From Candidatus Omnitrophota bacterium (GTDB lineage: Bacteria > Omnitrophota > Omnitrophia > Omnitrophales > Aquincolibacteriaceae): 64,000 bases of DNA. Under the pieces are notes generated by a model. That model did not search any database. It saw only the letters and a list, made by a program, of their open reading frames with translations, and was not told the DNA's origin. The position numbers were made by a program, and so were the translations under genes. The stretch covers positions 984 to 64,983 of the forward strand of contig JAKLIQ010000002.1 of NCBI GenBank assembly GCA_022709525.1, written 5' to 3'. Positions 6,109 to 57,156 of the stretch are shown in pieces (positions within the stretch are counted from its first letter, which is position 1; each line of letters opens with the position of its first letter).

Positions 6109-6263
6109 AGATAGAAACTCCTTCTCAAGTTGGCGTGCTGAATAAAATGACGCTATCGATCTTTAAAATAAGCCGCACCCATGAAATTTTATTTTAGTGA
6201 AACTACACTTGCAATACCCTTTTGACAACAAAAAAATCCTCCCACGATCGAAAAGGTTCGCGA

Positions 6264-14708: not shown

Positions 14709-14890
14709 AATGTCTTCTTTTTTAAGTCGTAAAATCTTTACACAGCCTCCTTCTCTGCATTCCGCAACCCTTTGCAACAACACTCGTTGCCTCTAGAAAT
14801 ATTTGATTTTTCCTCCAATACAAAAGTAGCATGATAGAGAAGATATTACAAGATATTGAAAAGATTTATATATTATTCAGAGGTTATAAT

Positions 14891-24047: not shown

Positions 24048-24146
24048 GGTTCCCTTTCTTATCATGAATTATGTAAGAGAATTTAAGGTTTTCAGGAGAG
24101 AAAAACTTGAGAAGTATATCATGAGGGGATGGAGCGCACAACGACA

Positions 24147-43400: not shown

Positions 43401-46400
43401 GTCCCAAAACTATCCAAAAGCTCCAAATATTGCCGCTCGAGCGAATGCCTTTGTTTGAGTCCTTGGAATTGAATTCTTGCTTGTTCGAGTTTTTTAGTTT
43501 CCCAGTCTTCGCGAAAATTGCCGCCCCAAACCCGTAAGTCTTTCCCGATTGTCAAGTCATCCTGATCATCGATAACACCTGCGCGAACCCAGAAAGTTGA
43601 AAGCTGCGATAATATTTCTAAACGCTCAACGCCCGCTATCTCCAGGGCGGATTGATATTGTTTCATGACGGGACTATTCTTGAAAAACTCTTCCCAATCC
43701 ATCCCCGGCAAGAGTTCGTCCGTAAAGGACAGAGTCTCCTTAGAAAGGGTGTCGCTTTCTACGCCTTTTGAAAGTTCAAAAATGTAGACCGAAGCGTCAC
43801 GAATCCCCATAACAGTAAGGAGCTGCATTTTGGCGCGATTAAGAGCTTCTTCGGCTTCGAGTTCGGCAAGGGCGCGGTTACGAACAATTTGACTGACTTC
43901 AAAATCTTCCAGATTCGTAAGAGTATTTAACCTCTGGGCGCTTTTCATCAATTGTTTGAGATTTGCCACTTGCGCTTGCTCCATCGGCGTCAGAGCTTCC
44001 GTCACGATTCTTTCAGTTTCATAATCAAAAAGAGCCTGATTCAAATTTCCGAGTTGACTCTCTAAAGCAATTTGAGCCTTTTCACCGGCATTTTTGAGAA
44101 CGATACGGTATTTTCTTCCTTGCAAGTTTAGGAGAGTTTCTACGGGATTAACATCTGCAACAATAGCGTTGTCATAGGGGGCGCGTTCTTCTTCAAAAGC
44201 CTCTAAGGAAGAAAGGGGGTTGACGGGGTTGTCTAAAAAACCCCGTATTTCAATGCCGGACCACCGATGAGTTTTTTCTCGGGCTTCGAACGCTTTTAAT
44301 TCTTTTTCCAAAAAGGCAACTTGCACGGCCGGATGTTCACGAGCCATTTGATCGAGCGTTTTTCTGTCATCTACCTTCTTAGCGGCCTCCTGACGAATTA
44401 ATTCATAATCAAAAACCATATGGGCGCGCAGCTGAGCTTCGGTCATCGTGCGATCGGTCTCTAATTTTTTCAATTTTTCGTTTAATTCAAATCGAATCAC
44501 TTTGTAGCGATCGATCGTGGTTTCATCCCGATCAAAAATCCGGTTGGCATCCTGCTCCAATTCTCCAACTTGAATGCGTCCTTCAATATTGACACCCCAT
44601 TGCTCAACGGCATCGCAAAGATTTCTGATGTGCTTTTCCTCTTCTACCAAGAAAGAGAAATGATCGACCAACGGGGACGCTTCACGCTCCAAACGATTCA
44701 AATCCGAGTCCTGCCATATGGCAAGATTTTGAGAATCCGTCGAGAGTCGTTCAATTTCATCTAAAATATTATAGACGCGTCTTGTCAAAACCTGCGCTGC
44801 GGGTTTCCCGATTTTTGACCAATTCAGGAATCGATTGGCGCCGTAGGCAATACCATTAAAGAAAGGGATTACCGGGGACAATTTATTCTTAAGGCCATAG
44901 CCGACTTGAAGACCGCCTTCCCATTTCCACAATTTTAAAATTTTAATATAAGATTGCTGCCTCCACTGAGCGGCAAACCGGCTTAATATCGCCTTCAATT
45001 CGGGCGCATCTGACGCGGCCGCAATAGCATTTCGAGAATTTTCAAATTCTTCGTGCAGAAATAGCTCTCCATGATATTCAAGAAATTTGCTTCTCAAGTA
45101 ATCATTTTGCGCACGAAGCGCCGTAAAGAACGACTGACCCAAACGAGTAAGGCGGGCACCTTTTGAAAGGTTCTCATTTTGAGCCTGTTTTAACCAGTCG
45201 CGGGCCTCGACAAGTTGCGCTTTTACACTTTTAAGTTCCTTTTTCTCGAGCTCACGAATATCTCGGCTTACAAAATGCCGGCTCCACCAACTATCAAGAC
45301 CCTTTTCGGCTTTATCAAATTTATCGATAAGATTATCGAGGGATCTTTGAAATGCTTGGAGCTTTTGAAGATCGATATTCCCTTCTGCATCCAGCAAGCG
45401 CGCAAAAGGGTCCAGGGGCGCCGCTCTGAGCGCTTCGTCGGATTCCCACAGAGGCACACGGTAAAGCGGAACCGGCTGCTGCGCTTCTTCTTCAGGCGTG
45501 AGCACTTTTTTCGGGGGCAGGGGCATGCCTTTAGCGTCATCATAAGCTTCTTTAATCGACCGGTGAGTCCCGAGCGTGAGAGACTTCCACTCCAGCATTG
45601 TTTTGGCAATTAAATACTCGAGTCCCTTAATTTTAATATCCATTTCCTTAATCGATTCATCCGCTGAAGCAAGTTCGATTTCGTAATGGTAGTAAGGAGC
45701 ATTTCCTTTAGTGTCTGCTTTCTCTTCCTCGAGTTTGGCAAGAATTCCCTCTCGTATTACTTTTTTGGTATCCCGATTGTCCTGAGCGTTTTTCAGTTGT
45801 CCCACCAACATCTGAATAACATTTTGATAGGTTTCGATGTTATGAATGAGAGCGAGTTTTCTGTATTCGTACTGGCGTTCCGCTTCTTCGCGGCTGAAGG
45901 CTTGTTCAGCACCATAAGCTCCCGAAAAATAGGCGGGATTAAAAAGCGTTGCGCGCAGATAGATTGACAGATTCCATTCCCAATCCTGCCAATCGTAGTC
46001 TTCAAAAATTGAATTCAAGTTATCGGATGAGACATTGCCGTAGCTGATACCGTAACCCGCGCGCAAGCCAACGCGCAATACTTCGGGAACGTGATAACGC
46101 ACATCTGTAACGCCAGCCTCTTGCTGGCCCAAAGTAAGTTGTGAGGTGCTACCTTCCGCTACAATTGAGGCTAAATTTTCAAAGGTCTTACGTTCCGCGA
46201 GAATCGGAGCGATCGCTTTTGCTTCTTCAACTTGAGCCAAAACGTCAGTTTTAAGAAAAGCGTCTTCAGAAACGTAAGCTTTTTCCAGAGCTTGTTTAAA
46301 AATTTCAAAGCGCTCCTTATTTTTATCTTTCCGGTCTTCAAGCTCCTTAAGAATTTTGGATTTCACTTCATCGAGCGTCTTTAACTGAAGTTCCATGCGT

Positions 46401-49400
46401 AAAATAGCGAGCTCCGTTCTTTCGATGTTTTGCTCCAGGCGCCCTCTTTTTTCAAGGGCCGCAAGATATTCCATGGCTTCTTTTGGCATGATGCCTTTTT
46501 CGTCCGGAGTCTTACGATAGCGAAGCAGGGCCACAACCTCGGGATTTTTTTCAAGTTTTGTAATCGTGCTATTGACTAGCGCCAGCTGATCGCGAAAATC
46601 TGTCAAGCTTTCTTTCTTATTTGCATAGTCTAGAGTCATGAGTTGTTGCAAGTCCCAAAATTCACGGATCCGCTGCGCAACCTGTTGAGCTAAAAACTCG
46701 AATTTTGCGTCATCGACCTGTGCGTCAAAGAGGTTGGTTGATTTCCAACCGGCATCCGCCTGAAGGACATGGACGGTAAAAGGAGACCCGATGGTATAGT
46801 ATTCAGCGATCATCAAAACGTCGGCGCTCATGGCGGGGGTGGCCACACTTACGTCGGCTGCGGGTCGCTTCTGCGCGGCTCCTTTTTCCAACTGGGTTAA
46901 AATTTCGCTTAAGGCGATGTCAATAAATTCGTCATTAATGCCCAATCTTTCCGCATGACCACGAAGTGAATCCAGCGTAATGACTTCAAGCGGCGTCGTA
47001 AAAGCAGCGATTTGAGACCGGCCCAAGCTTTCTTTAATCCTTCTAATATAATCCCGTTGTTCTTTCTCCAAATTGCCGCGATCCGCTACCGCGGAAGCGA
47101 TTTTAGCTTCAAAAATCCGAATGATTCCAAGGTCATCTTCAACGCCTTCGAGGTTCGTCCAAAACTTGACGGCGTTTTGAAGATCCGCAATCCGAGCGTT
47201 TATAATCTTTATTTCGGCATTGAGACGCCCTAATTGCCCGTAATAACCGAGAACTTCGCCCATAGCGGAATTTTGAAACGCCTTAAAAGCTAATTTGGCT
47301 AACTTTTCCTCAGCGCCGAACTGACCTTCAAGCCACGAGCGGATTGAATTGTAAACTTCAAACCGCAAAGAAAGCTCGAGGCTCTTATCGCGCTCTTCAT
47401 AAAGCTCTTCCACATTCAAATCCGGATCCAAATCCACCTTGGCGTAATATTCCACAAGCCAGTTATCGCTGGGATTATTGACGGGATCGAGAGGATGGTC
47501 TCGTTGCAGTTTTTTATCGATCAGTTCACGGTGTTTCCCCAGAGCTTCCATAATCTCTGAAAGTGAAGCGCCGCTAAAATCATTTTTGATTTTGTCGTAT
47601 TGCGCCGCGTAATAAGACGCCCAATAAAAAGCCTGTTGATACGCTGGATTGGTTGCAACCTCAGCGGGACTAACAGGAGACATCTCAACTGCCTTCCAAA
47701 AACCAGGACTAGTGAGAATTTCCTGCAAGCGTTGTTCTAAAACCCCGGCCGTTATTGGAGGAGTGTCCGGTAAATTAATCACGGTATCATCACTGATAGA
47801 ATTCACACCGCTCAGGATCCATCTCCCTGTAGAGGAGGGATCTTTCGCGCCGGTGGGCACAATGTCTGGGCCGTGCTCTTCATAGGCGGGGGTCCCCTCT
47901 TCAGGGTGAGTAGTTGTGGCCACAAGATCAACTCCCTCATCCTGGCCTGTCTCTGTATTAACAAGACTGATCGCTTCAGCATCCCCGGGAACCGGTTCGC
48001 CCGTGGTGTCCGTTCCCTCGAGCGCAGCTGTAGAAGGAGCTCCGGCTTGAGCGTAAGTAGGAGAGCCCAGCTGAATACTGCCATCTGGTCCTGCATACCA
48101 TGCATACGGAAAATTGATCGATTGTGATGTTGTCGTCGTGGTTTTATCCTGCGTAATGATTTTCTCGCGTGTGAAAATGCTCCAGGAACCCTTAAGATCC
48201 GCCTGGAACCATCGGCGATAGAGCTGAAAAGCCCGCATATGCGCCATCGCCATTTCGTAAGTTTTTAAAGCGATCAGAACATCCAGATTCTGATTTTTTG
48301 CTTCTTCTAAAGCATCGCCGATATCTTCCGGAACCGGCAAAAACTCAACCGCAAAAGGACTTTTACTTGTCATTTCCGCGGCACCACCCATCAAACCTGA
48401 CGTCGCCGTTGCTCCGGCTACTTCTTTCTTAGCGGTAGTTTCTTCTTTTCTCTTCTCAAGGAAAATGCCCGGAGTCCCACTTGGAGGAGGAACCGTAGGC
48501 GGCAATATATCTGAACCTCCAGGACCGCCACCAGGACCAGTAGGGCCGGGACCACCTCCGCCTCCACCCGGACCCGTCGGTGGCAATGTAGGCTCACCAG
48601 GAATTTCGGGCTTTATCGGTGTTTTCTCAGGAATTTGGGTCGGCGTTGCTTCGGCGACTTGAGCTTGAGTAACTGCTTGACTTGCTTGAGACGACGCGTT
48701 TACAGCTGCCGGCGTGACTGTTGTCGTCGCTATGGGGAGAGCTGCTACGGCAGATGCGACTCTTTGCGCAAGAATTTGCAACATAGGGAGCGTTGTCGCC
48801 TGACGGACCGCGCTCTCAAGTTCGATCCGATTCGTAGATACTTGCGGCAAATTCCCTTGTATTTCTTCTAATAGTTCGATACGTTTTGCTTCTACTTCTT
48901 TGGAAATAGACGGCGTAGCTCCAGTCGCCTGATAAAAAGCACCGGCCTTGGCGGTTAGGGCAGCGATGAAAGCTTCCCTTTCAGCCTCATCCATTTGTTC
49001 GATTTGTTCAGGCGTTGTCGTGCCGAGGAGCGCGGCCAAATCTTCACCCAACTCGCGCTGCCTCACCAAAGTCTCCGCATCAACAGAGCGCATAACTTCA
49101 GGTGCGGCTTGAGCGCTTTGGGCGCCAAGCGACATGAACATACTAACCCCACCCAGGGCTCCAACCCATTTCAGTAAATCTTTTCCGCCAAAGGTATGGA
49201 TTGCAGCCGCTTTGTTTTTGCGGGCAGCATAAAAAGCATTTACAGCTAGAAAAGCAATAAGAACTCCCCCTGCCATTCCTAAAATCGGCAAGGCGGGTGC
49301 GAGGGTCATCATGACTTGAAGAGAAGTCGTAACCCATGCCCCGGAAATTCCTACCTTAAAAACTAAGCCAACCACAGGAGCGACAAAAATAGCAATCGCG

Positions 49401-52400
49401 GCGGCATTATAAATACCAATCCGTTCGACGCCTTTAACTAAAATCCGCGCCAACAATCGCCATTTGTTAGTATCGCGATAAAAAGTTTGCTCTTTTTTGG
49501 CTAACGAAGTTGCTCCTTTAGATTGGGCGAAAAGTTGCAGTAAAGTAGAACCAAAATAAAATATGCCAAATACAGCTGCAAGCGTCCCGAGCACCATCGA
49601 AGCAGACGCGCCTAACGCAATGGCTAGCCATGCGGCAACGCCGACCCCAATGCCGACATAGGAACCTGCGCGAACCGGAGCATCTCCATAAATATCTTTT
49701 GCGGCTTGAAAGCTTCCTTCCTGTGCTTTAAAAAAACGCTGCTGAATGACATTACTTCCGTACCAAACCACGAGAATAAGCGCAACCGGCAAAAGCGCGA
49801 GAAGAGCTCCCGAAGCTGTAAAAATTGAAAAAACAGCATAGACAGTCCCGGCTGTGATTAAGGTTTTGATGATCGCTGCCTTATCGATATTGATATACTT
49901 AGTAAAGACGGGGAAGGAAAAATAATCCGGTTGGATTAAAATGGGCTTTTCCTTGACGGGACGACCCATCACCGCATAATGCGATTTGAGAGCTTTATTG
50001 AAACCCAAAATAGCCGCTGCAAGAATAACGGCAATTCCACCCATAATAAGCGCGAAAGAAGCGGTCAAACCAAGACTTACACCGAGAATGCCGAGCGCGC
50101 CCGGGATCGCAATTGCAAACAGGGCAATACCTAACGCCACTGTGGTTACATTAAAAAGCAGGTTTAATGTAGAATAAATAATGTAAGCCCCGAGGTCGAC
50201 TGTCATTTGGACAAACGGTTTTTCGCCGGAGGGAGCCCAAAGACCCTCGATGCTTTCTTTTAATTTTGTCTGGGCGATATTTTCGGCAGAAATTTTCTTC
50301 ATGATAAGATTCTTAAAAAGAAGGATTCCCAGGAAAATAGCAACTGCACCCACAAGTATCCCCGAAATAGTCAGCAATGAAAGCGTTGTAGCGCCTGCCA
50401 CCAAAGAGGAGTTAGCTAAAAAGGCTGGGACAAATTTAAGAATGCCGGCGCTAAGGCTGCCCACGGAAACCCACTTCATAACAATGCCAAAAATCACTCC
50501 ACTCCAAATGGCAACATTGACCCCTGCCATAACTAAAATACGTGCGGCTTTTGCTTTCCCAATGGGAGCCGCAGGTTTTGGCATTTCCAATTTCGGCATC
50601 TCAAGACGGATGATGTTTTTCCTCGCGATGCTTCTAATAGAAGCCTCGACCATTCCCAAATGGAGATCGAGTTCTGTACGCATCTTCCCTTTGTAATCCC
50701 CGACACGAACCTGATCGACCGCCATTTCTATTCCGGACCCGCGGAACATTTCGGCTTTAATATCTTCCGCACGCGTAATATAAGAAGACCGTAACACATT
50801 TACTGTATCTTGAATCGACATTGCTGCCACTTCACGAACCCGTTCTAAAATCAAAGCCTGAATTGCGGCATCGACGGAAAGATCTGCGGGGGTATTTGCA
50901 AAAAGCGCAATGAGACGATTCAGCATTTCAGGATTCATCCCTTGAATAAAAGCATCTGCAAACACAAGCTCCACAACAATGCGCGCACGGGCAGTGTCAT
51001 CTTTTGCGGCCTTGAGACTGGCAAGCAGTGCGGTTTCTTTTTCGGGTGAGATTTTTATGCCTCTACTTTTTAAAAACTCGAGGGCTTCTTGAGGGGTTTT
51101 CCCTTTTAGCCCGGAGATTATTTCAGTCCGTGCGCCATAAATCACACGCTGAAATTCAGGCGAACTCAGTGCGGCATTCGCCTCAGAAATTGCGGCTTCA
51201 ATCAGCTCGTTTCGTTTCGCATTATCCCAAACAAATTCATCAAACCGATTGATATCTGCATAGGCGGCATCATCCATTTCTTCTCTTTGGGCATCGGCTT
51301 GCATTTTCTCGGCAAGGATCGTATCCAAAATGGCTACGATTTCAGATTCAAATCCGCTTAAACCAATCCCGCGCTCGAAATTGCGCGGATGCTGTTCGGA
51401 ACCGGCCTCCCACCATTTTTCCCGCCAACCTTCTCCTTTCATGGCAGCAATGCGTCCGGCCTCTTCGGCTTGATAACTTTTGCTGGGCATCCAATCTTGA
51501 ACCGTGCCGTCCTTTTGAGCGTTCTTCCTTAATTTCGCGATCAAGGCAAGAAGGGGCTTGCGGTTCGAATCGCTGACGACCTGCGATAATTTTTCAAGGT
51601 CGGCGATGGAATAATACTGCTTTACGTGACCATAGGTCCCTTCACGGCCAACGCGACCGATTAATTGATCCATAATAATTTTCAGGGTATGAATACGGGT
51701 GAGATACAATGTTAAGCCGGTCACGAGCCCTGTTTCGGGGCTAACGATTTGCTCCAGAATTCTTACGTTAATACCGCGCGTTAGCGTCGCGTCGATCAGA
51801 AGCACGTGCCCAGGTTTTCCGGCCCTGGCAAGGACTGCGCTCCGCTCATCTGCCGAAAGCGTATCGCTATAAATCTCAACTGTTATTTTTCCTTCCATGC
51901 CTCGAGCTTTAACAACTGCTTCGATCTCGGCTTTTAAAGACGCTGCATCTTGAGAATCGATATCAATAAGATGGGGACGGTCGGGATTTTCCACAACATC
52001 AGCAACCACCTCATTCATCTTTTTGATATTGCCAACAAAAAGATTGGGCTTATAAATTTCTTTCGTGTATTTAAAAAGCCCGTCAACATGTTCGACTTCA
52101 AGCCCTTGCCCTGTTGCAGCGTATTTGATAGCTAAAGCTCGATCTCCCGTGGCTGTCATCAAAACACTTCCTGCTATAGCGGGCAATTTGCTCATTTGCG
52201 CCAAACTCATCCGGCTTACCGTCTTTGTTTTAGCCTGACGCTCAAGGCCCGCTTTTTCACGCAGTGGGTTTTGAAGCTCCTGCAAATGCATTCCATACAT
52301 CGCCCGTTCGTCGCTTGAAAATGGAACGACCTCCCCGTTCACCACTATGAATTCTCGGAAAACTCTCTTTCCTTGATACTCGGAACCCATCACCTGACCT

Positions 52401-55400
52401 TTTTGAATAAAGCATTCATGCGCTGTCAGCTCAGACTCAACCATGGCTTTCCAGTGGTCGAAAGTAATGCCTTTTTCCTGGATTTTGCTCTTCTTATATT
52501 CACGACCGGCTGCCAGCGCTGCGGACCAAGTCAAAGTGACTTTGGCATTTTGGTCATCAATGGTGTAGCGATTGGTTTTTCGTTCCGTAGACGGAGCGTC
52601 CGAATTCTTTCTCAAGGTTCTCGCAAATGCCGCCGCGACTCCTTCGGCTTCAAGGAGCAATTTCGCGTTATCCGCTTCTCCGCCTGAAATAATGGCTTGG
52701 CTGGGGTCGGTAACTTCGGCTTGGTCTGCTTCATCTTTAATAAGTGCGATCTTTCCCCTGTTGCCCTCGTAATTTACAAAATGACGGCCGCCATCACTCT
52801 GTGCATAGAACTGAAATTCCTCATACCGGGCATAAACCGCATCGGCTTTACGCATGATGTAGTCGATCGGATCCTGATAATACCTTCCTTCCGCTGCTTC
52901 TCGCGTGATGTCTTCAGCGGTAATTTCGACCATGGCGCCTTTAGCGCGATTCCAAATCATGGCATGTTTGCCTTTAACATCGCTTACGATATACCCCACA
53001 TGGAATGGTTCGTCAGGGTCGGCTTGCGTGAAATATTTCTGGCTTTCGCGCGCGCCATCCTCGGCATTTTTGTCGCTATTGGTTGCTATGAACACCTTGC
53101 GGCCCGCTTGAGCTTTAAGCCAAAGATAAGTTGTCAGAATTCCGATAATGGTTTTTCCCGCGCCGGTTACGGCCAAATCTAAGATATTTTGATTTTTATT
53201 GAGCGCTTCGAGATTTTTGAGGGCGGCTTTTAATTGACCTCGCACAATACGAAAAGCAACGGCTGCAACAGCATTAAAAATCTTCTGAAGTACGAGATTC
53301 TCTGTTAGCAGAGCATCGTTATCCTGAACTTCCTGATCGTGATCTTTTACATCAATTACCTCGACGGGCTTAACCTCTTCAGGTTTTGCGACTTCTGCGG
53401 TGGGCTGAGCTTCAACTTTAGGGGCTTCCTCGACTTTAACAGCTTCGGTTGCTGGTTTTGCTTCTTCAACTGGCTCGGCAACAGCTTGTTTTGCTCCTTT
53501 AATGGGCTTAGCGTAGTGTGCGACGGCATAAGGACTAAGACGCATGGTATAGGTGTTAAGCGACACATCATTCTCATAAAGAAGCCAAATCTGCTTCTCA
53601 ATATGTTCAGCGCTGTGATTCAGGAGTAAGTGTTTAATGAACGGCTCAAAAGAACGCTGGGAAAGAATGGTCAAAACGCGATCTTTTTGTTCTTGTGAAT
53701 ATGTCGTATCACCGCGAATTCTTCCTCCCACATTCGCAAGCGCAACCAGCTTGTCTCGAAGGGTTGGAAACTCTATGGCATTCCCGTCTTTTCTGTATGC
53801 AAAACGCAAAAAGAGAATGTCTTTGGGTTCAAAATCTGGTTTTTCAGGATCGAGCAATATGGATCTCAGCGCATCAATCTTCTCTTTGATATCTGTGCTC
53901 TTGAGAAGCATCGCCTTGAATTTTGCATCCCTAAGGTTCTCGAATGTTCCTTCGCCAAAGGCATCCTCCATAAGCTTATGATTTTTTGTTACGAGATCAG
54001 AAACCGGCTGGATCATCGGCGGCTGAGCTTCTTCCACCGCTCGGGCCTCGGAACGGGTGCGAATCGAAGCGCCTTCAAGACTTCCCTTGACGAGATAAAA
54101 CGACACGACACGTCCGTCCTGGGCGGGAATTGATCCGCGCCTGCCGGGGACAACTCCGGTCACCTCCGGTTTTTTGTTGGGCTCATGCAGGACAAACACG
54201 ATGTCATGCCTATTCCCCGCAAAAATCCGCAGCGACGGATTTCCGTTAATCGTCGTATCAGATTTAGGATCAAACTTGGCTAAAAACTTTTTTAGTTCGC
54301 CTAGCGCTTTTTTCTCTTCGACGGTAGCGCTTCCATCAAGCTGCGAAAGTCTGTCTTCCATATCGTTAAAAACGCGAATCCGGTCCGGTCCTTGCGCAAG
54401 TAAAAGAGTTTCCGCAATCACAAGAGGGAAATAAAAGACCTCCATCCGAAGCTGCGAAAAATCCAGCGTCTGTCCTTCAGAAAGGATCATGCGCCATGCA
54501 GCCAATTGAAACCGCGGGTCATTCAGGACCGGCGACTTAGGCTGGAGGAAGGCCTCCGAAAGGACCTGCTCGATCGGGAGCGGGGTTTCGCGCAAAGCGG
54601 CGTCATAAAGCGCGCTTTCTTTCTTCTTATCGATGGTCTTGGTGATGCGCGGAGCGACTACTATATAAGAGATGTCCTTCTCGCGAAGGTATTTCTCGAT
54701 ACCGGGCGTATGGAAACCGCCGGTCACGATAGCGGATATCTTCTGCCCGCTTGAAAGGGTTTTCTCAACCGCTCGCTCGATCAGTACCTGGTCGCGCTCG
54801 AGAGCGGCTTTATAGAAGCGCTCCACACGCGGCAGATCCTGATCGAGGTACTCCACTTGGGACGGCAATCCGTAGGTGAAGTGGTACTTCTGCATGAGCG
54901 GTTTGAGAAAACTGACGAATGTTGCGGACTTGAATTCATCCTGATAGGTGTAGAAGAATTCAGCATCCTGCTTGGTAAGCGTGAAATCGAACATTTTGCT
55001 GTAGATATCATAAATGCGGAGGATGTGGTCGAGCTGGACTTGTTCGGGGGTGGTCAAGAGTTTGCTTTTGACGGTCTTTTCGAGGAATTCGATCTCATCA
55101 AAGATCGAGACATCGATCGCGTCATAAAGTTTCATGTACCGGATATAGGCGATCACATTCGCGTATTTGGCGTTCAGGTCTTCCCCGCCGGTCTGCGTCA
55201 CGCTTAATCCCTTGATCTCATCTTCCAGATAACCGTAATAAGCGGCGCGTTTCATTTTCTTCATGCGGAAGTGGACGGTGTTGGTAAGGAAACGGGACAG
55301 TTTTTCGCGGGAGAGCATGCGCTTCAGGTCGTTGATCAGCTCATCGGTCTCTTTTTCGGCCTTCTCAAAATCGACCTGCTTTTCAAGATCGACCAGCTGA

Positions 55401-56191
55401 AGAAGCGAATGCATGCCGGGATATTCATCGAGCGCGATATTGTGGCTGCGGCCAAGCTCGACGAGATAGCGGACGTAAGCGACCAACTCCGGTCCGCCTT
55501 CCTGGAACGCGCTGCGGCGGCGGATCAGCTCGCGCATTTCATCGGAAAAAACAAAGCGGGTTACTCCCTCGAGAGCCTTGTTCAAGCCGGCCAGGACTTT
55601 CTCGTCCCGGTCTTTGAACTGAAGCGCGTCGACATAGGCCTGACGGTTCTCCTCGTAAAGCTCCTTATCTTCGACGCCATAAAGCGTCATGACGGGCTTT
55701 TCGACGATGGCCAGATATTCGGGCCCAGTGAGGCGCCCTTCTTTCAGGAAATAATCCGCGACATTGCGCCGCGCTTCTTTGTTCGGGAAGAAAGAAAAAA
55801 GTTCCGTGTAAAGTTCGCCGGAAGCGCCCTCAAGATTGACAAGTCCGAGCTGATATTTTTCGGAAAAGTAGCGGAGGATATTGGCGATATTGCGCTGGGC
55901 TTCTTCGTTGATGTGCGCGTCCTGAACATGAAGAACGACATGGTCCCGGTTTCCTTGGAAACTCGCTTTGACCGTCCCGTAGCTTTCCGGAAGATCCGGG
56001 CGTTCGACTAACGACGCGATGGTATTAATTTGTGAGGATTGAACGGAGGCGAGATTCCCGGGTTTTGCGGCCGCGGCGTAAGCATTGGCGCCGCCATCCC
56101 AGACAACCGAAGTGAAGGTAAACACAAAAACCGTAATAAAAGCTACGGTCCGTAGCCACGGCTTAAAGCTATGTGTTTGCCAGCTGATCAT
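31421..56191 (-). CDS. Giant multidomain membrane protein (8256 aa). Architecture: signal/anchor; conserved N-domain shared with the 2815-aa paralog; SecA/SF2-like ATPase; TM cluster 1; Pro/Gly linker; long coiled coils; TM cluster 2 (20 or more helices); C-terminal coiled-coil and alpha/beta region.
   Basis: Single uninterrupted 24,771 bp ORF. ATG at 56191 with gagagga about 10 nt upstream. N-terminus MISWQTHSFKPWLRTVAFITVFVFTFTSVVW. Walker A LAVTGAGKT, then KDEADQ, MTATG and DATLTRGINV. Hydrophobic clusters at about 49130-50560 and 34430-38260. All plus-strand ORFs inside are short and antisense. Confidence 0.9.
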   Translation of the reverse strand: MISWQTHSFKPWLRTVAFITVFVFTFTSVVWDGGANAYAAAAKPGNLASVQSSQINTIASLVERPDLPESYGTVKASFQGNRDHVVLHVQDAHINEEAQRNIANILRYFSEKYQLGLVNLEGASGELYTELFSFFPNKEARRNVADYFLKEGRLTGPEYLAIVEKPVMTLYGVEDKELYEENRQAYVDALQFKDRDEKVLAGLNKALEGVTRFVFSDEMRELIRRRSAFQEGGPELVAYVRYLVELGRSHNIALDEYPGMHSLLQLVDLEKQVDFEKAEKETDELINDLKRMLSREKLSRFLTNTVHFRMKKMKRAAYYGYLEDEIKGLSVTQTGGEDLNAKYANVIAYIRYMKLYDAIDVSIFDEIEFLEKTVKSKLLTTPEQVQLDHILRIYDIYSKMFDFTLTKQDAEFFYTYQDEFKSATFVSFLKPLMQKYHFTYGLPSQVEYLDQDLPRVERFYKAALERDQVLIERAVEKTLSSGQKISAIVTGGFHTPGIEKYLREKDISYIVVAPRITKTIDKKKESALYDAALRETPLPIEQVLSEAFLQPKSPVLNDPRFQLAAWRMILSEGQTLDFSQLRMEVFYFPLVIAETLLLAQGPDRIRVFNDMEDRLSQLDGSATVEEKKALGELKKFLAKFDPKSDTTINGNPSLRIFAGNRHDIVFVLHEPNKKPEVTGVVPGRRGSIPAQDGRVVSFYLVKGSLEGASIRTRSEARAVEEAQPPMIQPVSDLVTKNHKLMEDAFGEGTFENLRDAKFKAMLLKSTDIKEKIDALRSILLDPEKPDFEPKDILFLRFAYRKDGNAIEFPTLRDKLVALANVGGRIRGDTTYSQEQKDRVLTILSQRSFEPFIKHLLLNHSAEHIEKQIWLLYENDVSLNTYTMRLSPYAVAHYAKPIKGAKQAVAEPVEEAKPATEAVKVEEAPKVEAQPTAEVAKPEEVKPVEVIDVKDHDQEVQDNDALLTENLVLQKIFNAVAAVAFRIVRGQLKAALKNLEALNKNQNILDLAVTGAGKTIIGILTTYLWLKAQAGRKVFIATNSDKNAEDGARESQKYFTQADPDEPFHVGYIVSDVKGKHAMIWNRAKGAMVEITAEDITREAAEGRYYQDPIDYIMRKADAVYARYEEFQFYAQSDGGRHFVNYEGNRGKIALIKDEADQAEVTDPSQAIISGGEADNAKLLLEAEGVAAAFARTLRKNSDAPSTERKTNRYTIDDQNAKVTLTWSAALAAGREYKKSKIQEKGITFDHWKAMVESELTAHECFIQKGQVMGSEYQGKRVFREFIVVNGEVVPFSSDERAMYGMHLQELQNPLREKAGLERQAKTKTVSRMSLAQMSKLPAIAGSVLMTATGDRALAIKYAATGQGLEVEHVDGLFKYTKEIYKPNLFVGNIKKMNEVVADVVENPDRPHLIDIDSQDAASLKAEIEAVVKARGMEGKITVEIYSDTLSADERSAVLARAGKPGHVLLIDATLTRGINVRILEQIVSPETGLVTGLTLYLTRIHTLKIIMDQLIGRVGREGTYGHVKQYYSIADLEKLSQVVSDSNRKPLLALIAKLRKNAQKDGTVQDWMPSKSYQAEEAGRIAAMKGEGWREKWWEAGSEQHPRNFERGIGLSGFESEIVAILDTILAEKMQADAQREEMDDAAYADINRFDEFVWDNAKRNELIEAAISEANAALSSPEFQRVIYGARTEIISGLKGKTPQEALEFLKSRGIKISPEKETALLASLKAAKDDTARARIVVELVFADAFIQGMNPEMLNRLIALFANTPADLSVDAAIQALILERVREVAAMSIQDTVNVLRSSYITRAEDIKAEMFRGSGIEMAVDQVRVGDYKGKMRTELDLHLGMVEASIRSIARKNIIRLEMPKLEMPKPAAPIGKAKAARILVMAGVNVAIWSGVIFGIVMKWVSVGSLSAGILKFVPAFLANSSLVAGATTLSLLTISGILVGAVAIFLGILLFKNLIMKKISAENIAQTKLKESIEGLWAPSGEKPFVQMTVDLGAYIIYSTLNLLFNVTTVALGIALFAIAIPGALGILGVSLGLTASFALIMGGIAVILAAAILGFNKALKSHYAVMGRPVKEKPILIQPDYFSFPVFTKYINIDKAAIIKTLITAGTVYAVFSIFTASGALLALLPVALILVVWYGSNVIQQRFFKAQEGSFQAAKDIYGDAPVRAGSYVGIGVGVAAWLAIALGASASMVLGTLAAVFGIFYFGSTLLQLFAQSKGATSLAKKEQTFYRDTNKWRLLARILVKGVERIGIYNAAAIAIFVAPVVGLVFKVGISGAWVTTSLQVMMTLAPALPILGMAGGVLIAFLAVNAFYAARKNKAAAIHTFGGKDLLKWVGALGGVSMFMSLGAQSAQAAPEVMRSVDAETLVRQRELGEDLAALLGTTTPEQIEQMDEAEREAFIAALTAKAGAFYQATGATPSISKEVEAKRIELLEEIQGNLPQVSTNRIELESAVRQATTLPMLQILAQRVASAVAALPIATTTVTPAAVNASSQASQAVTQAQVAEATPTQIPEKTPIKPEIPGEPTLPPTGPGGGGGGPGPTGPGGGPGGSDILPPTVPPPSGTPGIFLEKRKEETTAKKEVAGATATSGLMGGAAEMTSKSPFAVEFLPVPEDIGDALEEAKNQNLDVLIALKTYEMAMAHMRAFQLYRRWFQADLKGSWSIFTREKIITQDKTTTTTSQSINFPYAWYAGPDGSIQLGSPTYAQAGAPSTAALEGTDTTGEPVPGDAEAISLVNTETGQDEGVDLVATTTHPEEGTPAYEEHGPDIVPTGAKDPSSTGRWILSGVNSISDDTVINLPDTPPITAGVLEQRLQEILTSPGFWKAVEMSPVSPAEVATNPAYQQAFYWASYYAAQYDKIKNDFSGASLSEIMEALGKHRELIDKKLQRDHPLDPVNNPSDNWLVEYYAKVDLDPDLNVEELYEERDKSLELSLRFEVYNSIRSWLEGQFGAEEKLAKLAFKAFQNSAMGEVLGYYGQLGRLNAEIKIINARIADLQNAVKFWTNLEGVEDDLGIIRIFEAKIASAVADRGNLEKEQRDYIRRIKESLGRSQIAAFTTPLEVITLDSLRGHAERLGINDEFIDIALSEILTQLEKGAAQKRPAADVSVATPAMSADVLMIAEYYTIGSPFTVHVLQADAGWKSTNLFDAQVDDAKFEFLAQQVAQRIREFWDLQQLMTLDYANKKESLTDFRDQLALVNSTITKLEKNPEVVALLRYRKTPDEKGIMPKEAMEYLAALEKRGRLEQNIERTELAILRMELQLKTLDEVKSKILKELEDRKDKNKERFEIFKQALEKAYVSEDAFLKTDVLAQVEEAKAIAPILAERKTFENLASIVAEGSTSQLTLGQQEAGVTDVRYHVPEVLRVGLRAGYGISYGNVSSDNLNSIFEDYDWQDWEWNLSIYLRATLFNPAYFSGAYGAEQAFSREEAERQYEYRKLALIHNIETYQNVIQMLVGQLKNAQDNRDTKKVIREGILAKLEEEKADTKGNAPYYHYEIELASADESIKEMDIKIKGLEYLIAKTMLEWKSLTLGTHRSIKEAYDDAKGMPLPPKKVLTPEEEAQQPVPLYRVPLWESDEALRAAPLDPFARLLDAEGNIDLQKLQAFQRSLDNLIDKFDKAEKGLDSWWSRHFVSRDIRELEKKELKSVKAQLVEARDWLKQAQNENLSKGARLTRLGQSFFTALRAQNDYLRSKFLEYHGELFLHEEFENSRNAIAAASDAPELKAILSRFAAQWRQQSYIKILKLWKWEGGLQVGYGLKNKLSPVIPFFNGIAYGANRFLNWSKIGKPAAQVLTRRVYNILDEIERLSTDSQNLAIWQDSDLNRLEREASPLVDHFSFLVEEEKHIRNLCDAVEQWGVNIEGRIQVGELEQDANRIFDRDETTIDRYKVIRFELNEKLKKLETDRTMTEAQLRAHMVFDYELIRQEAAKKVDDRKTLDQMAREHPAVQVAFLEKELKAFEAREKTHRWSGIEIRGFLDNPVNPLSSLEAFEEERAPYDNAIVADVNPVETLLNLQGRKYRIVLKNAGEKAQIALESQLGNLNQALFDYETERIVTEALTPMEQAQVANLKQLMKSAQRLNTLTNLEDFEVSQIVRNRALAELEAEEALNRAKMQLLTVMGIRDASVYIFELSKGVESDTLSKETLSFTDELLPGMDWEEFFKNSPVMKQYQSALEIAGVERLEILSQLSTFWVRAGVIDDQDDLTIGKDLRVWGGNFREDWETKKLEQARIQFQGLKQRHSLERQYLELLDSFGTTAQEALNRQESVTMLTQAWQKAVKENQATDNEGLDSIASLTYQVQSANLAFHFAYRTHLSVVMQLARFEQQHKLSREAVSATQKAVTPLEEEFAGSLPAEPAKPAVSAPEQVSLSEFSRMKFTHTVEQIDGSRLLYPDLADDAVLLMNALNMPSDPYLQNVVGNVIGRVGDRFKRFTTANGQFSETNTQPLVAGLKFDDEKNITAGLLNPGETLDRSWGIPWRTSYAAPADVQDALVSGDPAKGKKGFDFERVGFWDYQTQFANRIYNQTSMRTTLNLLTREDAQQWVRELAASLKDAKESLDQFYRKDFLPYSINSPNEFGTIFAWAFYAKRYGKTVEEALKDDSFRGKVELMLPTFNLNKTWGSIFDANISKGDRDPDYFMGQLAYSYFRGTVDKNGTLTPYQSNATQRKEEANIQATIAALRGVGAPAEQWPLIGYIIARLRNAMKDYTPLTDDEILKYPGAYIARQAKLLLKRFDSGELNGSFDTMSAEDLLKHYPLFFQSGEGKSLRENYQKASPEERLALDKTVHDYFKKSYRAELETRYAENIEEVRIGVEIGRAMGILPTILYGSGYASYEVEEREEWMRVDVLERLVKTEQLLKIAFKINESIKWNLNEDPENRIGRLIAIAREVGLEDNTWAEFFDKEGNAVDLPLIHMLFHNILSNEGVKRINEYLINTDRSRLYTSKDLRTRQGDVIALARELALSMKKGELGKEVPKTEAKAQQQVLDEIKQILTRRETIYQAAKNNNILVKREDLKYEDEVLQELKTKLPGLTAEQYYRWVRFVLDSRNTAGENLIRELDGYLSNPSEKPFWMSLGEAKRIRNFIEGTDGIPGLKADMYSEDQAKAWLAELIRNREISATNAEVTLNDILQRTQIEMYLQAAHMLYHVGDDGMPKRLQTGDLAAYSRIVMIREGFSKEQKDGKTAREFYAQLLKLDGLFSAALEGKKLKNNPYQEIAVDYPQLLSNELTRLGIPRDKDWATQNSFQMPRDKIIGMLSRLLEMQQWDYQYAPKTPEGVLQMVYYWVQDAALIEALIYKNHDYFVPYETLDGFIKYARKGEPVIHPTLGKILEREFRTSLFFDADLRGLGEGVFPKSGETVNLDDLRAIRKMYKLIFQQDLPVDELPASDHRKPLQSLWWAEKFSQIDVMMKGAGLSFAETSAARYEFMIEMRRAYEIFLQTTFYNISTPEKLSARHKDVDADMSHFIEQWANNYIKTYLAEKARKEKFESGQLAARDVEIAKNRKALRGAREQRLDEISKRLTQGEVDYAAIHKEKIAEIKAAIEALNQMTLFKGNPIKLDLRQIKMFADQMLSQGYSAGEVVLLRGYIRPHIVAAIEKIQNVKLDLSDVSTIAKVDNWALQVLDRAGGADKLDAIYREIEAFEKLQVLEKSVSDHFNNIEKQIREQAGESFTLFDTAKTRESEITRISSDAFNKDIDQAKVDSWFDLAWELYQAHHKVNSGSRPDFFRMLYTADGLLDLGIAASVPASEWQNPEIQTVMQNTLGWIFGEKSTVNPYSFLPEGVTPQSKDARQYARNAFEGKDTLEGILYKKWKADPTLKEKMLRELLERIQFLMKRKGGLEPVDLYEFNDRLMQNYQRLINHYYQGQHEGFQQQDLPKPSLISPLTLLVLADLQNPDPAKRIGVLDILFPNYDEQGILLLDDYGNSSLAAASRRLDTQFADHYSPVSESEKTWLSKILRFDNKTRPFQRVFLLGIILAAIAFLIRAIRYLFIDPYPLFNKRDAAERQSAYARRLGDFRIALAKFVMSSLSWTNVLLFLATIQPYSVAFNPLVVFSVALLYKILYDNLSYLPTFIAPARWKGVVQAFAMGALTIVGFKLFAHVSLSAGFGTFFLAYPIALVPIAAMVLLVILTLPSVDRQGGLVEVSQVQGGHPELEESELDKIDNEIHRIYEREQGGVDVTEEKASLRRQLNIFDINDHVYQTGLNGERVPFAEEGQLVADVCPVKISSVEDDMIDAVKAAARNVLGNLLKQKRSVLLVNGPEITKYQKARTQQERREMSMDDNSNVLLESVFAELQRAMKPYWSVLSYTDEKGVYHPGSEIVVLAYLPGGRKPEHNVIKWGAFTGYGEDGTPGKRVGELSNPDEGIVYPVELGGKIFLVGPKYATEKAKAEMIASGETKDILELYLPFSSEPFFAGIATEDEPFVSYGEAVRRNLPQLGQFLPTRSETRSAEERKFKAKVIISTTADGGNYVTSGTTRYQAKAFMLRPDIGLAQGVQDYRESKTTVHYESGVFAHRSYASLQEANALVAGVDRAGGKYTARTESSAEMSKPQKGLPYGAYYTRTILLSGILFRILGQELKERGGNLTQQQLDQLMNSGNGIPTKVNGEDEIVSATWDDVKKLKQYMPTLLTRIESYKGIQERATTSTGLKKILLQLQLGIYFYFVLDLTFLGRPFPASRKALDVMPVQYWQDLANIQISNYAGKTVRMKRADEKAMGIDDRTKNLVKQDEQESKWKFINDIIALYERFIGKSFPLTHGGRFLNDFEIHGLFNKDFWAVTLIIALAQATIAGLFALGGVHAAMFQTAITLFVVCGMTFVGALLNRLNRPVQPVLSSSVERKLPKFILKIGDWFITRGLDTVKWVVKDVPIGIAEKVYTGFSLVSRVTGIYEVVQYLIVLRRFHKYGTVATANPALSQDEIQAARQYVKLEDVRRGLTVSLAFLLILGAKICFSFVSVPVIAMAGGTIGLLLGIVISSLGLYSGIIVQNIGKAAEKNQWIQKDILGEQFDGTITYKSSQLSTAYDRLGYGKRSWVAIKLYIAAFFMSFIYQPIANLVDFVNRLFGINKHLSAEHDKAEKGRFSLFDYRLHGSQLVFSLLTLTVIGFAAPFLALYIPTAWYLLASTLILGFALAPLGNFLGGYLLPQRAAQWLTWGLGVAIMGATGLVFYHWTTQHILAIIMAKIIKGSLFIAGSSQMLSDGAPPLFSAVLQGNTPAFMLPQTVLVVGMLVFSLVGFGFWLFHKLWGEPIALKRDTDENPREIERGPEPPLAPVVETVVQEQLVQIPEVEKEAQAKLMQAVEQVGKKLDALAERQKLLAEEIAKRIREGRSEVRGAKDMAGMSLEALQSELAKVNAEMSSVIRKLNETLGNIPKNEQLDAKIAALNEQNKTSQKAAEDIIAEARIAAEKEKIRKAAEATQKAREEATRPAPLPVEKVAPPVQPVKTLGDWLNRSVGISSYAVLSAEIAKVKQEHPELAAQLEEYQAIEAALMSPNPRAFSSAFAVFISNASTDDARLQYLMALMTHFRAVVNPENIPAPVQALDKKGHYVFQPSSRIKKKIQPIVFWQNIDAAEVMIREAMKNAKVSEPKTLAEIRKQFTDKLQELVDMLSQGDVFDQWPADVFVLLGAPDVRAYALFADYWLKSEKKAPIILTGGREGRGYQPLKEAAFVYYRTKDAKIEEAVKSWNTEVDIMAYILQQEGVPLSAMSREAVPSKTTLENMENTEKLVVDKTNFAKPPTVVALVTAPYLLLRAKANAQAIWNQKGRLGVMLDVTAFKTYDLKVSDLSDRELISLGVYIAGLPEEFSGQFKLNGGNEIQGLKDVIAKGQGSVKVTVPENGEEIVNEAKAEFANYLKALPRAEAILKSIARSESRTGVEPVTSLETLTFEVKEYKNLIEELSSLIADMTSARSRISSQTAESIRLSKEIAKRQQELAQAQRDLARVQSELNITKLETEIQRLNIDMDNAMVQGDEDKIAQLAPNIARLNQELDAIRLAAEIQRFESVQFESVSRAELREVEEVPEIQKKEIPDMVTEASKVPAVAGAQRAAMEAALRAVASTQAIRFQYETLPDLLASVKAEGLEAKFTMSVVDALRSQGIIVTPVADIRDRGEYLLRQEKYDSSEIQKILDKKATGVTVAVVVASEADADLAKQDFGAAIEVIVASDDALDAVVESKMAKMGIRRDENAKLSVIQLDADASSMENEAAALLEGFVVIAKVRRALKWSTRVSIDSILKASFEAAQAFAVSA
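48465..48640 (-). other. Pro/Gly-rich low-complexity linker (PTGPGGGGGGPGPTGPGGGPGG...PPTVPPPSGTPG) in the giant protein
   Basis: Read directly. Explains the antisense Gly/Pro ORF at 48465..48662. Confidence 0.6.
51700..53200 (-). other. SecA-like / SF2 DEAD-motif ATPase module within the giant protein
   Basis: Order and spacing of the motifs: LAVTGAGKTIIG (Walker A, about 53160), ALIKDEADQAEVTDPSQAIISG (about 52730; compare SecA ILIDEARTPLIISG), VLMTATGD (about 52160; compare SecA GMTGTA), HVLLIDATLTRGINV (about 51775; compare SecA ATNMAGRGTDI). Confidence 0.5.
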
Positions 56192-57080: not shown

Positions 57081-57156
57081 TGGTGGACCTGAGGAGAGTC
57101 GAACTCCTGGCCTCTGCAATGCGAATGCAGCGCTCTACCAGCTGAGCTACAGGCCC
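57081..57156 (-). tRNA. tRNA-Ala (anticodon CGC)
   Basis: Reverse complement: GGGCCTGTAGCTCAGCTGGTAGAGCGCTGCATTCGCATTGCAGAGGCCAGGAGTTCGACTCTCCTCAGGTCCACCA. Cloverleaf with a 7 bp acceptor stem including G3:U70, D-arm GCTC/GAGC, anticodon stem CTGCA/TGCAG with loop TTCGCAT, T-arm AGGAG/CTCCT with loop TTCGACT, and an encoded CCA. Confidence 0.85.

Follow-up and report, generated by a model that had tools for sequence, protein, structure and literature searches.

A highly diverged SecA-like motor within a giant, transmembrane-rich predicted protein of an uncultured Candidatus Omnitrophota bacterium

In the stretch of DNA analyzed here (64,000 nucleotides, hereafter the window), an uncultured Candidatus Omnitrophota bacterium carries a single 24.8-kb open reading frame encoding 8,256 aa, of which aa 1007-1531 are, judged by their sequence, homologous to the DEAD motor of SecA, though highly diverged. 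The predicted motor comprises only the N-terminal two thirds of SecA, namely NBD1, the preprotein cross-linking domain (PPXD) and NBD2, and is followed by a lineage-specific region and a block of transmembrane helices. The initial annotation had located a SecA-like motor at 51700-53200; it does lie there, but that interval left out motif VI (QLIGRVGREG, 51638-51676), and the true span is 51599-53173. The features referred to below are the following:

31421..56191, minus strand: giant open reading frame, with an N-terminal signal-peptide-like helix, one SecA-like motor and three transmembrane blocks
51599..53173, minus strand: SecA-like DEAD motor (NBD1, PPXD-like insert and NBD2), aa 1007-1531, delimited with hhalign and NCBIfam
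52679..53173, minus strand: first part of NBD1, aa 1007-1171, with Walker A, a SecA-type VYARYEEFQFYAQSD element, Walker B/DEAD and the AIISG strand
53150-53173, minus strand: Walker A AVTGAGKT, in which GAGKT is aa 1010-1014 (53150-53164)
52721-52738, minus strand: KDEADQ (aa 1152-1157) of the Walker B/DEAD motif IKDEADQ
52682-52705, minus strand: PSQAIISG (aa 1163-1170) with the AIISG strand
52235..52678, minus strand: insert where SecA has its preprotein cross-linking domain, aa 1172-1319, 148 residues (hhalign)
52136..52234, minus strand: return of NBD1 with motif III LMTATG, in which MTATG is aa 1345-1349 (52145-52159)
51599..52135, minus strand: NBD2, aa 1353-1531, with motifs V and VI
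51764-51790, minus strand: ATLTRGINV (aa 1468-1476) of motif V IDATLTRGINV
51638-51676, minus strand: IMDQLIGRVGREG of the SecA-type motif VI HTLKIIMDQLIGRVGREG
50543..51598, minus strand: post-motor region, aa 1532-1883, lineage-specific, predicted to be helical in a low-confidence model
49238..50542, minus strand: transmembrane block 1, aa 1884-2318, about 10-12 helices in hairpins split by K/R-rich loops
49106..49177, minus strand: putative internal signal-peptide-like helix, aa 2339-2362, ending AQA↓AP, as read from the sequence

The five motif strings initially claimed are all present on the minus strand, in one reading frame of this single open reading frame and in the order given. Motifs I, II, III, V, and VI follow one another across two RecA-like domains, as in SF2 DEAD motors, at spacings of 143 (I to II), 192 (II to III), and 123 residues (III to V), compared with 104, 168, and 137 in a canonical SecA (P0009). 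Motif VI has the SecA form, H...QLxGRxGRxG, and not the HRxGRxGR of DEAD-box proteins. Across the giant protein neither a second P-loop nor a second DExD was found, the only ones being those of the motor, and searches against Pfam and NCBIfam recovered no other recognizable domain outside it. A Kyte-Doolittle scan yielded about 23-27 hydrophobic helices, fewer than the 30 or more transmembrane helices counted originally. Residues 1-2,691 are identical to HRY85386.1 (hypothetical protein, Candidatus Omnitrophota bacterium), and this fragment and the orthologs all come from Candidatus Omnitrophota MAGs. The gene is flanked by housekeeping genes, on one side those for NadE, Ogt, ArgS, MiaA, and HflX and on the other those for an esterase, an acyl-CoA ligase, and a thiolase; secY, secE, secG, and a canonical secA were all absent from the window.

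The assignment to SecA was examined with sequence and profile searches. Against a phmmer library of 1.84 billion (1.84e9) proteins, with E-values calculated for the whole library, the motor matched SecA-like proteins at E 1.8e-8, 2.6e-8, and 2.1e-5; the matches centered on NBD2, the relatives found were only SecA-like, and the top non-ortholog match (P0003) is a fragment of an Omnitrophota giant protein. Alignment of the motor to 11 SecAs with hhalign (Prob 98%, E 2.4e-13, 444 columns, SecA positions 103-596) began at Walker A, ran across the insert at the PPXD position, and covered NBD2 to its end. Since both searches returned E-values of this order (1.8e-8 to 2.1e-5 with phmmer, 2.4e-13 with hhalign), the motif set is not a product of chance. 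A two-sequence profile, built from the giant protein and its 52%-identical ortholog, retrieved five SecA chains and no helicase from the PDB; this profile and hhalign served as the non-circular tests of identity. In a PDB alignment, NBD2 paired with residues 493-588 of T. maritima SecA. A six-sequence profile that matched SecA at E 1e-120 was set aside as evidence because its near-canonical SecA-like members dominate it.

Family models point the same way at low scores. In Pfam the motor matched SecA_DEAD (E 0.0028), P-loop_SecA (E 0.021), and, over only 52 residues around the P-loop, ResIII (PF04851; E 0.021, 15.2 bits against 22.5, weaker than SecA_DEAD), and nothing else; no DEAD, Helicase_C, or SNF2 match was obtained at E up to 10. 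All five NCBIfam matches were to SecA or SecA2 (E 1.4e-6 to 8.9e-5). Every curated family threshold was missed (PF07517, 17.4 bits vs. 24.6; PF21090, 14.9 vs. 27), and the NCBIfam SecA models (TIGR00963 and the PRK models) gave the motor 21-27 bits vs. 800-1100. AlphaFold2 models were of low confidence, both from the single sequence (pLDDT 37) and with a 14-sequence alignment (pLDDT 49.5, pTM 0.33), too low for either to discriminate on PPXD or scaffold. A word-indexed homolog search returned no matches for the motor alone, and only P0002 and canonical SecAs for a four-sequence profile, while JGI metagenome contigs yielded no relatives either in a protein-profile scan or with a degenerate DNA pattern for IDATLTRGINV. 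That the motor is instead an SF2 helicase of general type, or a nuclease-associated ATPase, acting on nucleic acid (ResIII, Snf2, or DEAD-box type) is very improbable in view of the Pfam, NCBIfam, PDB-profile, and hhalign results, the exclusively SecA-like relatives, and the PPXD-like insert and other SecA-type elements in the motor. The initial annotation had preferred SecA over such a helicase, to be abandoned if ResIII or Snf2 profiles scored better and SecA-specific elements were missing; as neither scored better and a SecA-specific element is present, its preference holds.

SecA carries its preprotein cross-linking domain between motifs II and III. An insert resembling it was found in the motor at this same position; the initial annotation had proposed to look for the domain in the stretch from Walker A to motif II. 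Aligned alone to the PPXD columns of SecA, the insert gave P 4.2e-4 over 104 columns (hhalign), and a PPXD-only HMM scored it at 7.2 bits, exceeding 500 of 500 shuffles, while Pfam PF01043 on its own was undetected in the motor. We tentatively regard the insert as a weakly supported candidate for a PPXD-like domain.

Downstream of NBD2 the resemblance to SecA ends. The scaffold and wing of SecA, sought in aa 1536-1880 with hhalign, were not detected (Prob 0.18%); PF07516 had no match in the motor region, the post-motor region had none in the PDB, and the zinc-binding SEC-C tail (PF02810) had no match, the chain running on for 6,700 residues. The post-motor region lies where SecA has its scaffold and wing, with no detectable similarity to them, and together with the transmembrane block it returned no matches in a word-indexed homolog search. 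Transmembrane block 1, which adjoins this region, is directly followed by the internal signal-peptide-like helix, whose counterpart in the ortholog L002 reads ...AAQSAWA↓AQQ. Another Omnitrophota fragment (P0006) has the same order of NBD2, helical region, and transmembrane block, and in sequence its transmembrane block bears no similarity to transmembrane block 1.

Conservation between orthologs is highest in the motor, the helical region, and the first transmembrane block (73%, 57%, and 68% identity to L002, respectively), above all in the motor, and the flanks on both sides of this module are at about 29%. With dN at 0.18 and dS saturated, the motor has an omega no higher than about 0.06-0.12 and is under purifying selection. 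Walker A, DExD, and the arginines of motifs V and VI are invariant in three orthologs (52-73% identity) as well as in the 14-sequence alignment, T-G-x-G-K-T and D-E-x-D are invariant in the 14-sequence alignment, and R513, G514, Q550, L551, G553, R554, G556, R557, and G559 of NBD2 are conserved across the 14 aligned sequences. The predicted ATP-binding and hydrolysis motifs are thus intact, and some other SecA residues are altered (RR of HESRRID to KI, GRGTD to TRGIN). Such substitutions at several conserved positions, the loss of scaffold and wing, and the extreme divergence (21-25% identity to SecA, under all curated cut-offs) would suit a decayed relic, a pseudo-ATPase retained as a structural scaffold only. 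We regard this as unlikely, given that GKT, DEAD, the arginine of motif V, and QLxGRxGR of motif VI are invariant among the orthologs and against SecA, and that the most conserved part of the giant protein, with omega at most about 0.1, is the motor itself.

The side of the membrane on which the motor sits was approached through charge distribution. The stretch before transmembrane block 1 and the five long loops contain 4-9 K/R each, and the short turns 0-1; because K/R are concentrated in this way, the positive-inside rule would place the motor in the cytoplasm. A signal-peptide-like helix is also present at the N-terminus of the giant protein (aa 12-39, n-h-c layout, ANAYA↓AAA), with 2 K/R before it and a net charge of 0 after it. 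If it is a real signal peptide, aa 40-1883, motor included, would be exported to where ATP use is impossible, and no convincing second transmembrane helix that could reconcile a signal peptide with a cytoplasmic motor was found between aa 31 and 1883. Two candidates were rejected there, aa 581-599 as too polar (best Kyte-Doolittle value 1.47) and aa 965-983 as too polar and not conserved in L002. An exported motor nevertheless appears quite unlikely, since six K/R-rich stretches (33 K/R in total) would then face outside, where nothing would keep ATPase motifs conserved, and topology predictions for Omnitrophota giant proteins have been found to be often implausible (bioRxiv 10.1101/2023.11.21.568195).

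As to function, we lean towards a motor tethered to the membrane on the cytoplasmic side and assisting the export of the giant protein's own downstream segments. The scaffold, two-helix finger, wing, and zinc tail of SecA would here be replaced by the lineage-specific helical region of 350 residues and the block of about 10-12 helices, and through the block the motor would stay permanently anchored at the cytoplasmic side of the membrane. So tethered, the motor would act in cis, binding its own polypeptide, and possibly partner proteins, and pushing it across or into the membrane, probably through the cell's SecYEG. The segment moved would comprise about 3,600 residues and start with the signal-peptide-like helix just after the transmembrane block. 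ATPase activity, with polypeptide translocation as the reaction, is what we infer from the homology. The two-helix finger of SecA touches SecY and the substrate. Its absence along with the scaffold, the position of the motor under every curated threshold, the changed SecA residues, and an N-terminal helix that at face value puts aa 40-1883 outside the cytoplasm all speak against a SecA homolog acting in cis. Alternatively, a SecA-derived motor could act on other proteins, exporting or injecting them (effectors against prey or host cells, for instance), or work as a membrane unfoldase or regulator. It does lie 800 residues upstream of the signal-peptide-like helix, with a multi-helix block in between, and fused to its own substrate it would turn over only once; no partner genes adjoin the giant gene, the neighbors being housekeeping genes, and we consider this alternative possible at a lower probability than export in cis. 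More speculative and rather improbable is a self-contained translocase with its own substrate in the same chain, formed by the conserved module of motor, private helical region, hairpin block, and signal-like helix. The block would then either take over from SecYEG as the conduit or, standing in for scaffold and finger, hold the motor docked at SecYEG, and the motor would thread the 3,600-residue segment out before signal peptidase cuts at AQA↓AP (aa 2362/2363).

A motor of this kind bears on how tiny-celled bacteria synthesize, insert, and export proteins that range from 8,000 to over 100,000 residues. To our knowledge, a built-in SecA-derived motor is the only mechanistic lead so far. The window protein is a more tractable candidate for its study because it is at most about a quarter as large as the published examples, has no other recognizable domain, and holds the whole conserved module in about 1,400 residues (aa 960-2366). 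Catalogues built on Pfam thresholds miss such members, as the PF07517 score falls below its cut-off.

Compared with canonical SecA (3jux, 3din, 1m6n, 2fsf), the window motor shares the order NBD1-PPXD-NBD2, motifs I, II, III, V, and VI, an element like TYGTNxEFGFDYLRD, an IISG strand that runs into the insert, and a motif VI of SecA type. It differs in lacking the helical scaffold, two-helix finger, wing, and zinc-binding C-tail, in an identity of only about 21-25%, and in a distance from Walker A to motif II that is about 40 residues longer; moreover, canonical SecA is a soluble protein of about 900 aa, whereas the window motor is predicted to be one domain of an integral membrane protein. 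The nearest phmmer relatives after the Omnitrophota proteins (E 2.6e-8 and 2.1e-5) are short SecA-like ENA metagenome proteins of 375-617 aa (P0004, P0005, P0019, P0020), which likewise consist of NBD1-PPXD-NBD2 and carry hardly any scaffold or wing, or none. Unlike the window protein, they are stand-alone and soluble-looking, have near-canonical motifs (GEGKT, DEADS, ATNMAGRGTDI), and match Pfam SecA_DEAD, SecA_PP_bind, and P-loop_SecA, models that are out of its reach (best E in the alignment set 5.8e-84, 2.5e-22, and 1.3e-49, respectively). The closest known systems are the giant Omnitrophota proteins of West-Roberts et al. (2023 preprint), transmembrane-rich and with divergent SecA DEAD and preprotein-binding domains that lack scaffold and wing and form a separate long-branch SecA_DEAD clade (bioRxiv 10.1101/2023.11.21.568195); a 20-protein PF07517 architecture cluster has also been described (bioRxiv 10.64898/2026.06.07.730766). 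The window protein resembles them in its Omnitrophota genome, its very long transmembrane-rich open reading frame, a SecA domain adjoining transmembrane helices, DEAD and preprotein-binding parts without scaffold or wing, and extreme divergence from canonical SecA. It differs in having only 8,256 aa, as opposed to more than 30,000 aa in the 46 proteins analyzed by West-Roberts et al., and, by Pfam and NCBIfam, in the absence of the domains (glycosyl-transferase, hydrolase, peptidase, dockerin) by which their two classes, Archaeovorin-type and Dockerin-type, are defined (bioRxiv 10.1101/2023.11.21.568195). The same architecture and the same motor hypothesis have already been published for Omnitrophota giant proteins (bioRxiv 10.1101/2023.11.21.568195), the energized trans-membrane device suggested in the initial annotation being likewise a published proposal for them, and the window protein adds a further member to this arrangement.

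The minus strand of the window carries a single unbroken ORF (31421..56191) that encodes a giant protein of 8,256 residues, currently annotated as hypothetical. The initial annotation had read a SecA-like motor ATPase at 51700-53200 from five motif strings, and all five were confirmed in the same minus-strand frame and in the order given there, with a sixth element lying just beyond that interval (window coordinates, residues of the giant protein):

53150-53164, minus strand: GAGKT, aa 1010-1014
52721-52738, minus strand: KDEADQ, aa 1152-1157
52682-52705, minus strand: PSQAIISG, aa 1163-1170
52145-52159, minus strand: MTATG, aa 1345-1349
51764-51790, minus strand: ATLTRGINV, aa 1468-1476
51638-51676, minus strand: IMDQLIGRVGREG, with the sixth element QLIGRVGREG

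The P-loop and DExD of the motor are the sole copies across the full giant protein, in which Pfam and NCBIfam recognised no domain besides the motor. In the Pfam scan of the motor, which listed matches up to E 10, SecA_DEAD (E 0.0028, 17.4 bits, below the threshold of 24.6) scored better than ResIII (E 0.021, 52 residues around the P-loop only); P-loop_SecA matched at E 0.021, and none of the DEAD, Helicase_C or SNF2 models matched at E up to 10. All NCBIfam matches (5/5, E 1.4e-6 to 8.9e-5) were to SecA or SecA2 models and far under the equivalog cut-offs, while phmmer against PDB returned two SecA chains and nothing else (E 0.17). These direct library scans are weak, yet one-sided toward SecA.

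Run exhaustively against 1.84 billion representative proteins, phmmer matched six: a 2,691-aa fragment identical to the giant protein (P0001), an ortholog 52% identical to it (P0002), an Omnitrophota giant-protein fragment with the SecA-like domain at its end (P0003, E 1.8e-8), the short SecA-like proteins P0004 and P0005 (E 2.6e-8 and 2.1e-5), both bearing Pfam SecA_DEAD, SecA_PP_bind and P-loop_SecA, and P0006, another fragment from Omnitrophota (E 1.8e-4). A profile of the giant protein and P0002 only matched five SecA chains and zero helicases in PDB, collinearly through Walker A, the ADITYGTNNEFGFDYLRD...IVDEVDS region and motif VI. When this profile was compared with 11 canonical SecAs using hhalign (probability 98%, E 2.4e-13, 444 columns), giant residues 1007-1531 (51599-53173, minus strand) corresponded to SecA 103-596, a span that takes in Walker A and runs through all of NBD2. 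In a 14-sequence alignment, T-G-x-G-K-T, D-E-x-D, the R-G of motif V and Q-L-x-G-R-x-G-R-x-G of motif VI were invariant or nearly so. Since library scans, PDB profile, hhalign and alignment all point to SecA, with neither ResIII nor Snf2 models scoring better and SecA elements present, the SecA-like reading is supported over the generic SF2 helicase that had been kept as its alternative, and the motor is, as judged from these comparisons, homologous to the SecA motor.

In SecA, the PPXD exits NBD1 after the IISG strand behind motif II and re-enters before motif III. The initial annotation had proposed to look for this preprotein cross-linking domain between Walker A and motif II, which is the wrong site; at the true position, the giant protein has an insert of 148 residues (aa 1172-1319), three stretches of which were aligned by hhalign with SecA PPXD elements: YTIDDQNAKVTLT with FxxDEKxRxxxLTE, FIVVNGEVVPFSSDERAMYG with DYIVxNGEVVIVDEFTGRMMxG, and LQNPLREKAGL with GLHQAIEAKEGV. 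The insert alone gave P 4.2e-4 over 104 columns in hhalign and only 7.2 bits with an HMM, yet the latter exceeded 500/500 shuffles; PF01043 was not detected by itself in the motor region by Pfam. We count a PPXD as present, with weak support. The following region (aa 1532-1883) resembled neither the scaffold nor the wing of SecA (hhalign probability 0.18%) and had no relative in a PDB search, and the SEC-C tail is absent from the giant protein. Tests for scaffold, wing and tail were negative and the matches stay below curated thresholds, and on these grounds the giant protein does not count as a member of the SecA family proper.

Structure prediction with AlphaFold2 was of no help in the assignment, reaching pLDDT 37 from the single sequence, and pLDDT 49.5 with pTM 0.33 from the 14-sequence alignment. 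The top nine Foldseek hits of the model were SecA chains (E 5e-8 to 3e-5, TM-scores only ~0.15), a ranking that is weak and partly circular, as SecAs were in the alignment behind the model.

Conservation was assessed against the lone ortholog fragment in the GTDB species set (L002, 1,821 aa occupying an entire contig of the Omnitrophota MAG nzgw336, 70-73% identical across the motor). Identity was 73% in each of NBD1, insert and NBD2, 57% in the post-motor helical region, 68% in transmembrane block 1, and about 29% both before the linker and after the block. For the motor, dN was 0.18 and dS was saturated, giving an omega of at most about 0.06-0.12. By the regional identities and the low omega, motor, helical region and transmembrane block 1 act as a single constrained module, with the ATPase motifs preserved. 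P0006 has NBD2, helical region and transmembrane block in the same order, its block sharing no sequence similarity with that of the giant protein. A 161-aa ORF antisense to the motor region (52697-53182, plus strand) is in all likelihood a spurious shadow ORF, since the minus-strand frame is conserved and under selection.

The initial annotation overcounted the TM helices (30 or more): a Kyte-Doolittle scan gave about 23-27 hydrophobic helices, of which one spans aa 12-30 and the others make up three blocks, at aa 1884-2318, 5977-6139 and 6786-7248. The 20 residues ahead of transmembrane block 1 and five long loops in or after it contain 4-9 K/R each, and the short turns joining paired helices 0-1, a distribution that under the positive-inside rule indicates helical hairpins with the motor and all long loops probably cytoplasmic. 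Directly behind the block, an internal signal-peptide-like helix (aa 2339-2362, 49106-49177, minus strand) ends in AQA|AP, kept in L002 as AWA|AQ; it would direct the next ~3,600 residues outward, and its end suggests signal peptidase cleavage and release of the downstream segment. Inside this presumed exported segment lies a proline/glycine-rich low-complexity stretch, PTGPGGGGGGPGPTGPGGGPGG (aa ~2540-2580, window ~48450-48570).

The analysis establishes the homology to SecA, the intact motifs, purifying selection, the lack of several SecA domains and a motor module lying next to transmembrane block 1. In the best-supported reading, for which we infer ATPase activity, membrane side and substrate from the sequence, a SecA-derived motor and clamp would sit in the cytoplasm, permanently tethered to the membrane, and would act upon the giant protein's own chain or partner proteins, powering export or insertion; the helical region private to these proteins would, together with the transmembrane block, stand in for the lost scaffold and wing. 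A role purely as a trans-acting exporter is a less likely but real prospect. A motor exported out of the cytoplasm would fit the N-terminus (aa 12-39, 56078-56158, minus strand), which resembles a cleavable signal peptide (ANAYA|AAA) and is at odds with an ATPase lying in the cytoplasm 1,000 residues further on; the Kyte-Doolittle scan gave no convincing second helix before the motor. Implausible topology calls of a like kind have been reported for Omnitrophota giant proteins (bioRxiv 10.1101/2023.11.21.568195), and with the K/R distribution pointing inward we regard export of the motor as improbable. A pseudo-ATPase, compatible with the sub-threshold family scores, is unlikely given the intact motifs and purifying selection, and a generic helicase is the least credible of all beside the SecA matches.

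Over residues 1-2,691 the giant protein has exactly the sequence of HRY85386.1 ('hypothetical protein, partial [Candidatus Omnitrophota bacterium]'); P0002, P0003 and P0006 are also of Omnitrophota origin, and no relatives were found in JGI metagenome contigs. Stand-alone SecA-like proteins (P0004, P0005, P0019 and P0020, ENA metagenome) of ~616 aa consist of NBD1-PPXD-NBD2 plus a scaffold stub only and stand closer than full-length SecAs to the motor of the giant protein. The giant gene is flanked by ordinary chromosomal genes, and the window contains no canonical secA. The G+C of the giant gene (0.42-0.50) is lower than that of flanking housekeeping genes (0.52-0.56), and a tRNA-Ala(CGC) (57081-57156, minus strand) lies ~890 bp upstream of its start, which may reflect island-like acquisition or a compositional peculiarity of giant genes. 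Elsewhere, a 961-aa protein (21180-24065, minus strand) combines transaldolase and phosphoglucose isomerase domains in one chain.

A second long ORF (6264-14783, minus strand) encodes 2,839 aa with ~5 hydrophobic helices and no Pfam domain. Its residues 39-510 align with giant residues 14-516 (26% identity, E 4e-35), and therefore both proteins share an N-terminal signal-like helix and a ~480-residue domain with a QDAH...GGFH pattern:

13104-14621, minus strand: common N-terminal domain, 2,839-aa protein
54512-56101, minus strand: common N-terminal domain, giant protein

Faint hints of the Tiki/ChaN/erythromycin-esterase superfamily occur in the 2,839-aa paralog only (PF04187 E 0.023; PF05139 E 0.11).

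SecA-like motors in giant Omnitrophota proteins have already been published, and the present protein is an additional example. West-Roberts et al. described SecA DEAD and preprotein-binding domains without scaffold and wing, which neighbouring transmembrane regions may anchor and which may function in the giant protein's own export (bioRxiv 10.1101/2023.11.21.568195), and a 2026 preprint defined a PF07517 architecture cluster of 20 proteins among 916 long Omnitrophota proteins (bioRxiv 10.64898/2026.06.07.730766). The giant protein here matches the former description but differs in having no other recognisable domain and a SecA motor below the Pfam threshold. It is also far smaller than the proteins of West-Roberts et al. 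(8,256 vs. >30,000 aa), and being so compact it may offer a convenient experimental entry point to the class.
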